Origin: a virus
Lineage: Duplodnaviria > Caudoviricetes
DNA length: 64,000 bases
Virus record (IMG/VR): IMGVR_UViG_3300032309_000245
Coordinates: 641 to 64,640 of that record
Strand: one strand, 5' to 3'
Part shown: positions 23,841-27,506 of the stretch, piece by piece
How the letters are laid out: each line of letters starts with the position of its first letter
Position numbering within the stretch: position 1 is the first letter of the stretch
Translations under genes and position numbers: made by a program
Notes under the pieces: model-generated
Told to the model about the DNA's origin: nothing
What the model saw: the letters and a program-made list of their open reading frames with translations, nothing else
Database searches by the model: none

Positions 23841-24752
23841 ATGGCAATTTCACGCGCCCAACTACTTAAGGAACTCCTGCCGGGGCTTAATGCTCTGTTT
23901 GGTTTGGAGTATTCCCGCTACGGCGAAGAGCACAAGGAAATCTACGAAATCGAGAGTTCCGAGCGTTCTTTTGAAGAAGAGACCAAGCTTTCGGGCTTCT
24001 CCGCTGCACCAGTCAAAAACGAAGGCGCTGCCATCGCTTATGACAATGCACAGGAAGCTTGGACGGCTCGCTACAACCACGAAACCATTGCTCTGGGTTT
24101 CTCGCTGACCGAAGAGGCCATCGAGGACAACCTGTACGACAGCTTGTCTGCTCGTTACACCAAAGCTCTGGCTCGTGCGATGGCTTACACCAAGCAGGTG
24201 AAAGGTGCTTCGGTTCTAAACAACGGCTTCAATTCTGCCTATCTTGGCGGCGATGCACGGCCTTTGTTTAGCACGACGCATCCGCTGGTTTCTGGTGGCA
24301 CCAACAGCAACACGCCTTCTACTCAGGCTGACCTGAACGAAACTTCGTTGGAAAACGCGGTTATTCAGATCGCTGCGTGGACGGACGAACGTGGTCTGCT
24401 GATCGCTGCTAAGCCTAAGAAGCTGGTCATCCCACCCGCGCTTCAGTTCGTTGCTACCCGTCTGTTGGAAACCAGCCTGCGCGTTGGTACGACTGACAAC
24501 GATATCAACGCTCTGAAGAACAACGGTTCGATCCCAGAAGGGTACACTCAGAACCACTTCTTGACCGATACGAACGCATGGTTCCTTACCACTGATGTTC
24601 CTAACGGCATGAAGATGTTCGAGCGTATTCCACTGTCCAATAGCATGGACGGTGACTTCGACACGGGTAACGTCCGTTATAAGTCCCGCGAGCGTTATTC
24701 GTTCGGCTGGTCTGATCCGCTTGGAATGTACGGTTCTTCCGGTTCAAGCTGA
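23841..24752 (+). CDS. Major capsid protein
   Basis: MAISRAQLLKELLPGLNALFG...PKKLVIPPAL...RERYSFGWSDP. Strong AAGGAG RBS, biased codons, followed by a terminator. Confidence 0.92.
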   Translation: MAISRAQLLKELLPGLNALFGLEYSRYGEEHKEIYEIESSERSFEEETKLSGFSAAPVKNEGAAIAYDNAQEAWTARYNHETIALGFSLTEEAIEDNLYDSLSARYTKALARAMAYTKQVKGASVLNNGFNSAYLGGDARPLFSTTHPLVSGGTNSNTPSTQADLNETSLENAVIQIAAWTDERGLLIAAKPKKLVIPPALQFVATRLLETSLRVGTTDNDINALKNNGSIPEGYTQNHFLTDTNAWFLTTDVPNGMKMFERIPLSNSMDGDFDTGNVRYKSRERYSFGWSDPLGMYGSSGSS

Positions 24753-24757
24753 TAGAA

Positions 24758-24790
24758 GAAAAGGGGGCCAAAAGCCCCCTTTTCTTTTTT
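24758..24790 (+). terminator. Intrinsic terminator after the major capsid gene
   Basis: GAAAAGGGGGC-CAAAA-GCCCCCTTTTC followed by TTTTTT. Confidence 0.9.
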
Positions 24791-24814
24791 ATATGTATGT
24801 GTTATAAAGTGGCA

Positions 24815-24893
24815 TACCTAGACCACCCGACTTGCTAACTGACTAGGCAGACTCTCCTCAAGAGATAGCAAGTTTTGATTTGAGGACTTTATT
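24815..24893 (+). ncRNA. Candidate structured 5' leader RNA (pseudoknot)
   Basis: Complementary pairs 24817-21/24843-47, 24830-37/24866-73, 24853-56/24862-65 and 24855-61/24880-86 (the last covers the RBS). Confidence 0.5.
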
Positions 24894-25376
24894 ATGGGTT
24901 TCGCTTCCCACCTTGGCCCTTGGCTGCTTGGCACTAACAAGTACACAACGGGCACGACTTCTGGCACGATCCAGAACATGGGCGCAACGATTGTTGCCCA
25001 GACTGACAGAGTTACATTTGCTGATACAACGGCGACCAATGCAGCGGTGCTCCCTGCTGGAGCTTGCATTACTGCTGTTCAGCTTGTTATTGATAGTGTT
25101 GTGTTTAACGGCACTTCGCCTACGCTGACTATTAAAAACGGCACCACGACGATTGGTACGATCACGCCTACTTCTGGTACTGGTGGTACATACGCAATGA
25201 CCGCCACCACTACGGTTGCAGATGCTGCGCTAATTACCAACGTCGGTGCTACGGATGCGATTATCACTGTTACGGTTAGCGGCACAACGGTGACGACCGG
25301 TTCTGGCACATTGATTATTGCTTATATCGTCCGTGGCTCTGACGGCGCGATGTACCCAACCAGCACCCAAAACTAA
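24894..25376 (+). CDS. Virion structural protein (Thr-rich, decoration-like)
   Basis: GAGG RBS; beta-rich; located after the capsid gene. Confidence 0.7.
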   Translation: MGFASHLGPWLLGTNKYTTGTTSGTIQNMGATIVAQTDRVTFADTTATNAAVLPAGACITAVQLVIDSVVFNGTSPTLTIKNGTTTIGTITPTSGTGGTYAMTATTTVADAALITNVGATDAIITVTVSGTTVTTGSGTLIIAYIVRGSDGAMYPTSTQN

Positions 25377-25389
25377 GTAGGGGGCTGTA

Positions 25390-25653
25390 ATGGCTAAAAC
25401 TAATTACAGTCCCACTTTCCCGATGTTTCCGGGTGGGGCTACGACCTTCACCAAGAGCGACACCATCAATCTTCCCACCCCATCAGTCATTTATGTTGGC
25501 GGGGCGGGAAGCACCGGCACGGTAAGGGTACTCACCGCACAGGGTGATGACGTTACTTTTATCGGCTTGACGGCGGGAAGTGTGGTCCCTGTACAAGTAA
25601 TCCGGGTGTTTAACACCACGACAGACGCGACCAATCTGCTGCGGATTTACTAA
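25390..25653 (+). CDS. Small virion protein
   Basis: IYVGGAG...GSVVPVQVIRV..T.T.AT motif typical of small phage structural proteins. Confidence 0.7.
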   Translation: MAKTNYSPTFPMFPGGATTFTKSDTINLPTPSVIYVGGAGSTGTVRVLTAQGDDVTFIGLTAGSVVPVQVIRVFNTTTDATNLLRIY

Positions 25654-25654
25654 A

Positions 25655-26566
25655 ATGGCCCTTGGGTTCGGGCTTGCCCTAACAAGCTACAGGAAAGCCG
25701 CTGGCGGTGGTGGCGGCACCCAGAAAGCTATTTTTGGGTATGGAGATCCCTTTACCGCAATAACTAATTTAGTTAGTAATGCAGGGGTTGTTGCAACGAA
25801 CACTACTGGCGTAGGCACGGTTAGGCGAAGATTGGCCGCTGCTGGTTATGGTAGCGATAAGGCTATTTTTGGTTATGGGCAGGACAATTCATTCAATTAT
25901 GTTTCTATCACCAACTTAGTCAGTAATACCGGCGTAGTTGCTACAGACACCACAGGCGTTGGCACTGGTAGGAGTGTTTTAGCAGCGGCTGGTTACGGCG
26001 GCGATAAGGCCATATTTGGTTATGGAGACACCGGATCAAATACTGCTATAACTAATTTGGTCAGCAACACCGGAGTAGTTGCTACAGACACCGCAGGTGT
26101 TGGTACCGCTAGACGGGAGTTAGCCGCTGCTGGTTATGGTACGGATAAAGCAATATTTGGGTATGGCACGGGGCCAACAGCAGTAACCAACTTAGTCAGC
26201 AACACTGGGGTTGTAGCAACGGATACCACTGGTGTTGGTACCGCTAGACCCGCACTAGCAGCCGCTGGATATGGCACAGATAAGGCTATTTTTGGTTACG
26301 GGTATTCTGGCGGTGCAGTGTCTATAACCAATTTAGTTAGTAACGCGGGGGTTGTTTCAACTGACACAACTGGTGTTGGCACAGCCCGATATGGCCTCGC
26401 CGCTGCCGGTTATGGTGGCGATAAAGCTATTTTCGGTTACGGAACTACTGGTTCTAATACTGCCATAACTAATCTGGTTAGTAGCACTGGGGTTGTAGCA
26501 ACGGATACTGCTGGGGTAGGTACGGCAAGGCAATACCTCGCCGCAGCAGGGTATTCCCTAACTTAA
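25655..26566 (+). CDS. Six-repeat (kelch/beta-propeller-like) protein A
   Basis: Six repeats of about 46 aa: KAIFGYG-x-TNLVSNTGVVATDTTGVGTAR-xx-LAAAGYG. Confidence 0.8.
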   Translation: MALGFGLALTSYRKAAGGGGGTQKAIFGYGDPFTAITNLVSNAGVVATNTTGVGTVRRRLAAAGYGSDKAIFGYGQDNSFNYVSITNLVSNTGVVATDTTGVGTGRSVLAAAGYGGDKAIFGYGDTGSNTAITNLVSNTGVVATDTAGVGTARRELAAAGYGTDKAIFGYGTGPTAVTNLVSNTGVVATDTTGVGTARPALAAAGYGTDKAIFGYGYSGGAVSITNLVSNAGVVSTDTTGVGTARYGLAAAGYGGDKAIFGYGTTGSNTAITNLVSSTGVVATDTAGVGTARQYLAAAGYSLT

Positions 26567-26570
26567 AGTC

Positions 26571-27506
26571 ATGGCACTAGGTTTTGGATTAGCACTGACA
26601 AGTTACCGAAAAGCCGCTGGCGGGGGTGGTGGGGGTGGCGGCACGCAGAAGGCTATATTTGGGTTTGGGTATAGTTCAAGTGTTACTGCCGTAACTAATT
26701 TAGTTAGCAGCACCGGTGTCGTTGCTACAGACACTGCTGGTGTTGGTACAGCGCGATATGGGCCAGCCGCTGCTGGTTATGGCACAGATAAAGCTATATT
26801 CGGTTATGGGTATAATGGCAGTGTTACTGTCTCAGTCACAAATTTGGTCAGTAACGCCGGGATTGTCGCAACGGATACTACTGGTGTTGGAACGGCAAGG
26901 CAGTATCTCGCCGCTGCTGGTTACGGGACCGATAAAGCTATTTTTGGGTATGGAGATACCGGAACAAATACTGCAATAACCAATCTTATTAGCAACACTG
27001 GAGTTGTTGCAACCAATACTGCCGGAGTTGGTTCGGCCAGAAATGCGCTTGCCGCATCGGGATATGGTGGTGATAAAGCCATATTTGGCTATGGAGATAC
27101 CGGTTCAAAGACTGCTGTAACCAACCTAGTCAGCAATACCGGAGTAGTTGCTACAGACACTACTGGCGTTGGTTCTGCTCGATTTAGATTAGCCGCTGCC
27201 GGTTATGGAACAGATAAAGCGATATTTGGTTATGGGGATTTGTCTTCTTTTGTTTATACATCTATAACCAATCTTGTTAGCAATACCGGCGTAGTTGCCA
27301 CTGACACCGCCGGTGTTGGTACCTCTAGGATGTATTTAGCAGCGGCGGGCTACGGTGGTGATAAGGCCATATTTGGTTATGGGTATGCTGGTTTTGCAAT
27401 TTCTAGCACTAATTTAGTTAGCAACACCGGAGTTGTTGCCACTGACACCGCCGTTGTTGGTACGGCTCGATGGTCGTTAGCCGCAGCAGGTTACTCACTT
27501 ACTTAA
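26571..27506 (+). CDS. Six-repeat (kelch/beta-propeller-like) protein B, paralog of A
   Basis: Same N-terminal leader, the same six repeats and the same C-terminus AAAGYSLT. Confidence 0.8.
   Translation: MALGFGLALTSYRKAAGGGGGGGGTQKAIFGFGYSSSVTAVTNLVSSTGVVATDTAGVGTARYGPAAAGYGTDKAIFGYGYNGSVTVSVTNLVSNAGIVATDTTGVGTARQYLAAAGYGTDKAIFGYGDTGTNTAITNLISNTGVVATNTAGVGSARNALAASGYGGDKAIFGYGDTGSKTAVTNLVSNTGVVATDTTGVGSARFRLAAAGYGTDKAIFGYGDLSSFVYTSITNLVSNTGVVATDTAGVGTSRMYLAAAGYGGDKAIFGYGYAGFAISSTNLVSNTGVVATDTAVVGTARWSLAAAGYSLT

Follow-up and report, generated by a model that had tools for sequence, protein, structure and literature searches.

Does the gap between the capsid gene and the gene behind it encode a regulatory RNA? 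The question was raised by a 64,000-nucleotide stretch of the IMG/VR phage record IMGVR_UViG_3300032309_000245 (positions 641 to 64,640; hereafter the window). An earlier note, made from the sequence, had pointed out four complementary pairings in the about 80 nucleotides (nt) between the capsid terminator and ATG 24894. It suggested a double-pseudoknot leader RNA which can sequester the Shine-Dalgarno sequence (SD) of the next gene, likely a capsid cement gene. We examined this segment together with its relatives. Positions 24817-24886 constitute a genuine conserved RNA of about 70 nt in which four helices form a double pseudoknot.

A double pseudoknot ahead of the probable cement gene

All four complementarities were found in the window sequence at the coordinates proposed. 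P1 joins CCTAG 24817-21 with CTAGG 24843-47. P2 joins ACTTGCTA 24830-37 with TAGCAAGT 24866-73 and grows to 9 base pairs, including one G-U, when it is extended to 24829-37/24866-74. The suggestion that P2 crosses P1 as a pseudoknot was borne out, and both helices are kept by compensatory changes in relatives. The same applies to the anti-SD pairing of TCCTCAA 24855-61 with TTGAGGA 24880-86. It is a real helix, P4, which in the window carries the SD in its 3' strand. Solely the third helix had to be revised. The complementarity of TCTC 24853-56 with GAGA 24862-65 exists in the window, yet it is not conserved and overlaps the P4 5' strand. The conserved P3 consists of CTG 24839-41 and CAG 24848-50, and its hexaloop holds the P1 3' strand.

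P1 crosses P2 and P3, and P4 crosses P2. Because P1 crosses P2 and P2 in turn crosses P4, the topology is that of a double pseudoknot. A structural parse of the relatives gave the strand order P1-P2-P3-P1'-P3'-P4-P2'-P4'. The first half of the element runs from the P1 5' strand (5 nt) via a linker, the P2 5' strand, an A, the P3 5' strand (3-5 nt) and one variable base to the P1 3' and P3 3' strands. The second half consists of AC(N), the P4 5' strand, (N)GA, the P2 3' strand, a linker, the P4 3' strand, the SD and the ATG. The parts in the window are (J denotes a junction, L a linker; rows refer to the alignments described below):

24817-24821, + strand: P1 5' strand CCTAG, at most about 3 nt from the predicted 5' end; partner 24843-47
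24822-24828, + strand: linker L1/2, ACCACCC, variable among relatives in alignment A4
24829-24837, + strand: P2 5' strand GACTTGCTA; partner 24866-74
24838, + strand: J2/3, unpaired A; A in 65/68 distinct rows
24839-24841, + strand: P3 5' strand CTG; partner 24848-50
24843-24847, + strand: P1 3' strand CTAGG, the final 5 nt of the P3 hexaloop
24848-24850, + strand: P3 3' strand CAG; partner 24839-41
24851-24852, + strand: J3/4, unpaired AC; A in 68/69 and C in 66/69 rows
24855-24861, + strand: P4 5' strand TCCTCAA; partner 24880-86
24862-24865, + strand: J4/2, GAGA, with unpaired GA ahead of the P2 3' strand; G in 65/68 and A in 68/68 rows
24866-24874, + strand: P2 3' strand TAGCAAGTT; partner 24829-37
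24875-24879, + strand: linker L2/4, TTGAT; 4-7 nt in most relatives by the structural parse
24880-24886, + strand: P4 3' strand TTGAGGA, including the SD GAGGA 24882-86, seven bases ahead of ATG 24894

Just five unpaired bases are conserved to at least 90%, i.e. A24838, A24851, C24852 and the GA at 24862-63. J4/2 of the window has a 2-nt insertion; the conserved GA was put at 24862-63, either GA being possible. As a separate observation, GTGG 24810-24813, upstream of the predicted transcript start, can pair with CCAC 24823-24826 in the P1/P2 linker, as seen in the minimum free energy fold. This pairing is possible only in transcripts reading through from the capsid gene and would enclose the P1 5' strand.

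Compensatory changes support all four helices

The capsid protein of the window was used as a query and retrieved 80 IMG/VR loci at 86-92% identity as well as two phages that are cultured or named, DSL-LC04 and Pag-Yong1. Downstream of the capsid stop the layout was the same in most of these loci; the helix sequences differed. MAFFT alignments (A1-A3) mis-registered the helices and covariance-model alignments were used instead. Model R1 comprised P2 and P3 and yielded alignment A4 with 69 distinct rows, P1 being outside the model. Model R2 comprised P1 and P4 and yielded alignment A6 with 66 rows, here with P2 and P3 outside.

In A4, 97.1% of the cells were paired compared to 73.9% in shuffles, and 16 of 18 pairs had changed on both sides. 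None of 500 shuffles attained the observed values, and slid partners were at most 57.6% paired. P2 was 96.4% paired, and 10/10 modelled pairs had changed on both sides. The three P3 pairs were CG in 69 rows, UA 39/AU 25/CG 5, and GC 65/CG 3/AU 1. This model did not contain P1, yet its two parts were paired to 95.7% and 97.6%; among the pair types were CG 37/UA 31 and GC 54/AU 9/UA 3. A6 was 95.8% paired and 21 of 24 pairs had changed on both sides. The helices unmodelled there were recovered: P2 was 89.6% paired with 10/10 pairs changed on both sides, and P3 was 100% paired, its middle pair being UA 38/AU 25. P4 was 100% paired with changes on both sides in 6/6 pairs, in an alignment that was fitted to the model.

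P4 was also examined in a model-free manner. A 6-mer at a fixed position had its downstream complement in 69/70 members compared to 480 of 13,671 shuffled 6-mers (3.5%). When the 5' strands of other members were used as a control, a complement turned up in 1294 of 3586 comparisons. This high number is due to a near-palindromic CATG/TGCA core common to many P4 variants; hence the shuffle control was used. The paired cells contained 73 G-T and 6 A-C combinations, which demonstrates that the structure belongs to the + strand RNA. Thus the covariation check on post-capsid regions of relatives, which the earlier note had called for, came out in favor of P1, P2 and the anti-SD pairing; all three are conserved and covary.

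Predicted promoter, insertions and neighboring genes

Where does the RNA start, and to which gene does it belong? The elements around it are:

23841-24752, + strand: major capsid protein gene, 303 amino acids, gpT/HK97-type (phrog_371 major head protein, E 4.4e-22)
24754-24788, + strand: intrinsic terminator of the capsid transcript, a 15-base-pair G+C-rich stem with T-run, from a terminator scan
24800-24808, + strand: extended -10-like element TG-T-TATAAA, by sequence, just after the capsid terminator
24894-25376, + strand: downstream gene, 160 amino acids, by predicted fold a probable jelly-roll capsid cement protein

The capsid protein is 55-70% identical to the annotated capsids of DSL-LC04, Pag-Yong1, HTVC023P/027P and CRP-902. 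A terminator-like hairpin with T-run follows the capsid gene in most of 82 related loci (by eye, uncounted). In the window, this terminator has an A-run ahead of the stem and the T-run after it, and it looked terminator-like on both strands in sub-threshold Rfam hits; it may act bidirectionally.

The TG-n-TATAAA element, noticed before as a possible transcription start signal, is present at 24800-24808. In 71/72 members a -10-like hexamer is located 5-11 nt before P1, and in 53/72 it ends 8-9 nt before P1. The hexamers were TATATT (27), TATAAA (18) and others; their mean best score was 5.13 compared to 3.19 at random positions. A -35 match of at least four of six bases was found in 34/72. From the spacing of the -10-like box a transcript start 0-3 nt before P1 is predicted.

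The distance to the capsid gene is not constant. In 48/72 loci the motif starts 47-108 nt after the capsid stop, in 24/72 it is 469-1293 nt away because a gene is inserted. Six inserted open reading frames were scanned. One encodes GIY-YIG and NUMOD3 domains, one an endonuclease VII domain, and four had no Pfam match. The gap between capsid gene and leader looks like a hot spot for homing-endonuclease insertion. Insertions are carried by L005, L007, L011, L017, L029, L062 and 18 other loci (e.g. L017:2727-3455 and L062:3964-4821), and in Caulobacter phage GB2A a homing endonuclease is annotated at the corresponding site. The other side of the motif is fixed. In 63/63 loci, those with insertions included, 6-14 nt separate the end of P4 from the downstream ATG. 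Since this distance is held across insertions, the RNA belongs to the downstream gene and not to the 3' end of the capsid gene. A covarying sense-strand structure at a fixed place between a promoter-like box and the start codon of one gene family is what is generally expected of a structured cis-acting mRNA leader, and this is what was found.

The downstream product itself had no sequence match in Pfam, PHROG or the PDB, and tblastn against cultured phages gave none. An AlphaFold (AF2) model from 14 homologues was of moderate quality (predicted local distance difference test score, pLDDT, 62). With this model, Foldseek retrieved as best match 7eel_H from the capsid asymmetric unit of cyanophage Pam1 (E 3.6e-5), followed by 7dn2_1 (Helicobacter phage KHP30 capsid), 8h89_J (Ralstonia phage GP4 capsid) and 7dou_4 (trimeric cement protein of Helicobacter phage KHP40). 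In DSL-LC04 the syntenic gene carries the annotation 'cement protein'. The Foldseek matches and this annotation make a role in capsid cementing or decoration likely, in agreement with the decoration protein that had been proposed for this position.

The knot reaches the Shine-Dalgarno sequence

Does the knot hide the SD? Among 63 members the SD directly follows P4 in 38, overlaps with it by 1-2 nt in 21 and is fully inside in four. As full sequestration occurs in just 4/63, simple masking of the SD is not the conserved mechanism. SD masking is real in this phage; the feature which is conserved is that the knot reaches the SD. Accordingly, the translational switch by SD sequestration put forward in the earlier note stands in part. 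The leader is always close to the start codon and in the window P4 contains the SD; sequestration as such does not hold for the family.

We then considered whether the RNA has a second conformation. In 35/68 distinct members the linker after P1 is complementary to the P1 5' strand and could form an alternative 5' hairpin, compared to 3.5% of shuffled linkers. In three lineages the P1 5' strand, the linker and the P3 loop changed in a matched manner, i.e. CCGAG/TCGG/CTCGG, CTGGG/CCAG/CCCAG and CCAGG/CCTGG/CCTGG. Judged from sequence, these data suggest that two alternatives, a local 5' hairpin or the P1 pseudoknot, have been under selection. The proposal of a switching RNA thereby gains some support from half of the family, yet not from the RNA for which it was made.

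Distribution of the motif

R1 gave 71 matches in 83 sources, one per source and all on the capsid strand; the motif of the window scored 20 bits. R2 gave 66 matches of which one was spurious (L010:619). It added L003, and the motif is thus present in 72/83 sources. The cultured Pelagibacter phage HTVC023P was matched by both R1 and R2 (32 and 38 bits), directly upstream of gp41. Diverged versions were seen by eye in HTVC027P and in phage 023Pt_psg01, with the P1 variants CTGTA/TACAG and CTATA/TATAG.

A second clade was assembled from 80 IMG/VR loci retrieved with the HTVC023P capsid. R2 matched 25/80 loci at E <= 0.1, and several further loci carry the motif by eye. In this clade 97.8% of the cells were paired and 11/11 pairs had changed on both sides. 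P1 was 100% paired with 5/5 pairs changed on both sides, and P4 was 95.9% paired. Other loci of this set have a different, simpler conserved leader, CCCTGAC-hairpin-GACA...GACAGGAG and then ATG, ahead of the same kind of gene. It is typical of CRP-902-like phages and was found in L086:3480-3552 (Roseobacter phage CRP-902) and, downstream of the capsid stop, in L140, L143, L145, L147 and L161. Depending on the clade, the cement gene may be preceded by different structured leaders.

The motif occurs once per genome. The complete 64,640-base-pair virus record which holds the window has a single copy, with no second copy above 15.3 bits in the window, and 5/5 complete related genomes have one true copy each. 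An apparent second copy in contig G004 was rejected, as it lies in a redundant contig end with a second capsid fragment. L092 and L097 are the two ends of this 65-kb contig, each with a capsid gene, an endonuclease-like gene, the leader and the cement module; the cement-gene types differ. Probably, the double module is an assembly joining two strain variants and not a true duplication. L008, L051, L074, L076, L055 and L035 had no motif match with filters off. These six as well as L031 and L044 had no cement-like gene in the fetched DNA and therefore are uninformative.

What does the RNA do?

On balance, the RNA probably is a cis-acting leader by which initiation of cement-gene translation is gated or tuned and the mRNA 5' end is tied to the ribosome-binding site, judging from sequence comparison. 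A sigma-70-like promoter of its own would drive its transcription, with the start 0-3 nt before P1. P2 would close a junction which holds the small P3 hairpin. P1 would be formed by the five bases at the 5' end together with the P3 loop and would stack on P3. The 3' side of the junction would pair with the bases directly preceding or including the SD (P4), and the five conserved unpaired bases (A, AC, GA) would sit at the junction. The knot would then be essentially the whole 5' leader of the capsid-cement mRNA and would act in cis on initiation. With P1 at the 5' end and P4 at the SD, it would tie both together. In this phage the folded state would hide the SD GAGGA in P4, so that an attenuating or gating effect on translation would be expected; in most relatives the SD would be placed at the edge of the knot. 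A putative trans factor would shift the balance, a protein or the ribosome being likelier than a metabolite.

Several observations weigh against this reading or the structure on which it builds. The single-sequence fold of the window had a minimum free energy of -20.5 kcal/mol and z = 0.01 compared to 200 shuffles. This is indistinguishable from chance and, consequently, the case rests on the relatives. Shared ancestry of related sequences inflates shuffle tests; the number of distinct pair types together with the slide controls make chance untenable nonetheless. Further pair types, one of the five covariation measures, showed no excess in the second clade, 485 of 500 shuffles being as high. 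Pag-Yong1 (L002) had no R1 or R2 match at or near the leader despite a weakly similar cement-like gene directly after the capsid gene; its sole match at E <= 0.1 was a 16.7-bit hit inside the capsid gene. The transcript start in the window, about 24814-24817, is a prediction from the -10-like box. An SD fully inside P4 is limited to the subclade of the window (window, L003, L012 and L016), and the window RNA is without the alternative 5' hairpin by eye. A specific binding pocket would be expected to comprise more than five conserved unpaired bases. RNA subtypes and N-terminal types of the downstream protein were mixed across loci (by eye), which argues against tight co-evolution with the cement protein as an effector. 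Finally, the cement protein presumably is needed in capsid-like amounts, and this fits boosting or stabilizing as well as repressing.

The more far-reaching version, a two-state sensor which couples cement synthesis to capsid assembly or to the host state and uses the 5' hairpin and the P1 pseudoknot as a switch, is doubtful.

Is a switch required at all? The RNA could be a constitutive 5'-terminal fold which protects the mRNA against 5'-end-dependent decay by RppH, RNase E or RNase J, insulates the SD in a fixed context and boosts expression with neither switching nor effector. We regard this as unlikely, but as an explanation to be taken seriously. P1 follows the -10-like box by 5-11 nt, by 8-9 nt in 53/72, and the 5' end is thus predicted to be paired. 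The SD is free, just outside P4, in 38/63, conserved unpaired bases are few, the gene encodes a likely high-copy cement protein, and the leader has retained its own promoter after insertions. However, a simple 5' hairpin would suffice for protection, and four helices of tightly conserved geometry are left unexplained. So are a P4 which always ends at the SD (63/63), the SD sequestration in the subclade of the window and the covarying alternative 5' hairpin.

It is improbable that the motif represents a new class of small-molecule riboswitch in which a ligand at the junction stabilizes the double pseudoknot and alters access to the SD. Several features would suit a riboswitch. The leader is compact and spans the region between the predicted transcript start and the SD. 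In all members the 3' strand of the pseudoknot either borders on the SD or includes it. The conserved bases cluster at the junction, and a mutually exclusive, covarying 5' hairpin exists in 35/68. Yet there are just five conserved unpaired bases, half of the family including the window is without the alternative hairpin, no Rfam riboswitch model matches, and the regulated gene encodes a virion structural protein for which a metabolic logic is absent.

The put RNAs of phage HK022 act in cis and modify RNA polymerase for processive antitermination. That the motif acts likewise on transcription through the virion-gene operon is very improbable. It is located at the very 5' end of an apparently long, tightly packed + strand operon, directly after a promoter, and its structure is conserved more than its sequence; but a strong + strand intrinsic terminator is absent within 14 kb downstream, and the invariable SD contact is not explained. 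Least of all do we expect a self-cleaving ribozyme or processing signal that defines the cement mRNA 5' end, e.g. in capsid read-through transcripts. A nested pseudoknot about 70 nt in size which begins at the predicted RNA start and has few conserved bases does look loosely HDV-like (HDV, hepatitis delta virus). Its strand order is unlike the HDV fold, however: the P3 loop contains the P1 3' strand, and P4 does not form a local hairpin. Rfam ribozyme families gave no match, and a -10 box at fixed spacing makes cleavage unnecessary.

Comparison with known RNAs

Is the motif a member of a known family? The earlier note could not match it to any recognized RNA class, and indeed no Rfam family did so. 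At 24000-25600 of the window, the Rfam 15 matches listed at E <= 10 were anchored on the capsid terminator hairpin or outside the motif, and none reached half its gathering score. At gathering scores 20 homologous loci yielded 0 matches; at E <= 1, 11 loci yielded three, none at the motif. The Mu-gpT-DE family (RF03012) was tested directly because the capsid homologues of CRP-902 and of an Alcaligenes phage are annotated gpT-like. This family, as its name implies, lies downstream of the Mu gpT-type major head gene. Its model (53 positions, cut-off 49 bits) had no match at the motif in 5/5 records; the best scores were 16.2 and 9.6 bits elsewhere, on the strand opposite to the motif. Common to both is the context of a gpT-type head gene, but the present motif travels with the downstream gene and not with the capsid gene.

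H-type pseudoknot translational riboswitches (preQ1-II, SAM-II, SAM-V, guanidine-III) are compact leaders in which the 3' pseudoknot strand is at or includes the SD. The motif resembles them in its covarying helices, the conserved bases at the junction and a P4 3' strand which overlaps or abuts the SD. It differs by four helices with two crossings, a 5'-terminal strand which pairs into a hairpin loop, and a cement gene in place of a metabolic gene. Pocket nucleotides of these families were not found; unpaired conservation is limited to A, AC and GA and no Rfam match was obtained.

Pseudoknotted operators are known from E. coli rpsO (S15) and the alpha operon (S4) where the effectors are RNA-binding ribosomal proteins recognizing rRNA mimics. 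Similarities are a leader pseudoknot which contains or abuts the ribosome-binding site, presumably holding or blocking the 30S subunit, and an abundant structural product. Here the product has a predicted jelly-roll cement fold, and similarity of sequence or model is absent. The T4 gene 32 element is a single H-type pseudoknot with an unstructured tract before the ribosome-binding site, and its effector gp32 binds nucleic acid. In contrast, the present double pseudoknot reaches the SD itself without a spacer, and the product has a predicted cement-like jelly-roll fold; neither a nucleic-acid-binding product nor a spacer before the ribosome-binding site, as in a gene 32-type operator, was found. 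The gene 32 leader is treated in two papers as a phage mRNA 5' pseudoknot of a highly expressed gene under classical autogenous translational control (PMC535899, PMC10690425).

The resemblance to HDV-like ribozymes and flaviviral exonuclease-resistant RNAs comprises a size of about 70 nt, two pseudoknots, locked first bases and few invariant bases; the strand order differs and no Rfam match was obtained. HDV-like ribozymes have the order P1-P2-P3-P3'-P1'-(P1.1)-P4-P4'-P2'; that of the motif is P1-P2-P3-P1'-P3'-P4-P2'-P4'.

No description of the motif was found in the full-text literature, the alignments and models of PMC10690425 being outside this comparison. That paper describes a catalogue of 8,495 candidate structured RNAs from IMG/VR (Fremin et al., 2023; PMC10690425). 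In one of its tables, supplementary file 4, the sample-number part of six contig names did not occur. The catalogue may contain the motif. We conclude that the motif belongs to a known general kind of RNA, the mRNA leaders with pseudoknots, and that its structure is new and, within this scope, uncatalogued. It is widespread in freshwater and marine phages.

Implications

The four-helix fold with its abundant covariation is absent from Rfam 15 and, within the above scope, from the searchable literature. The gene behind it functions in virion assembly, and the phage group concerned is very large; it includes the HTVC023P-type pelagiphages, which have been called widespread (PMC9599517). If the motif regulates translation or the fate of the mRNA, it would show how phages with host-type promoters set the amount of a capsid accessory protein relative to the capsid protein. 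Should it be a two-state sensor, it would be without precedent as a riboswitch-like or assembly-sensing RNA that controls a virion structural gene, and this in phages which rank among the most abundant ones of lakes and oceans. Both HTVC023P and HTVC027P are cultured phages, with Pelagibacter HTCC1062 as the host; for HTVC027P, a transcriptome of the infection has been published (PMC12753301). As a compact natural 5' module extending from +1 to the SD, the leader may also serve as an expression insulator.

Downstream of the cement gene, the window contains tandem paralogous genes at 25655-26566 and 26571-27506. They encode proteins of 303 and 311 amino acids with repeats of about 38 residues (…DKAIFGYG…TNLVSNTGVVATDT.GVGT.R..LAAAGYG…), for which no informative family match was obtained.

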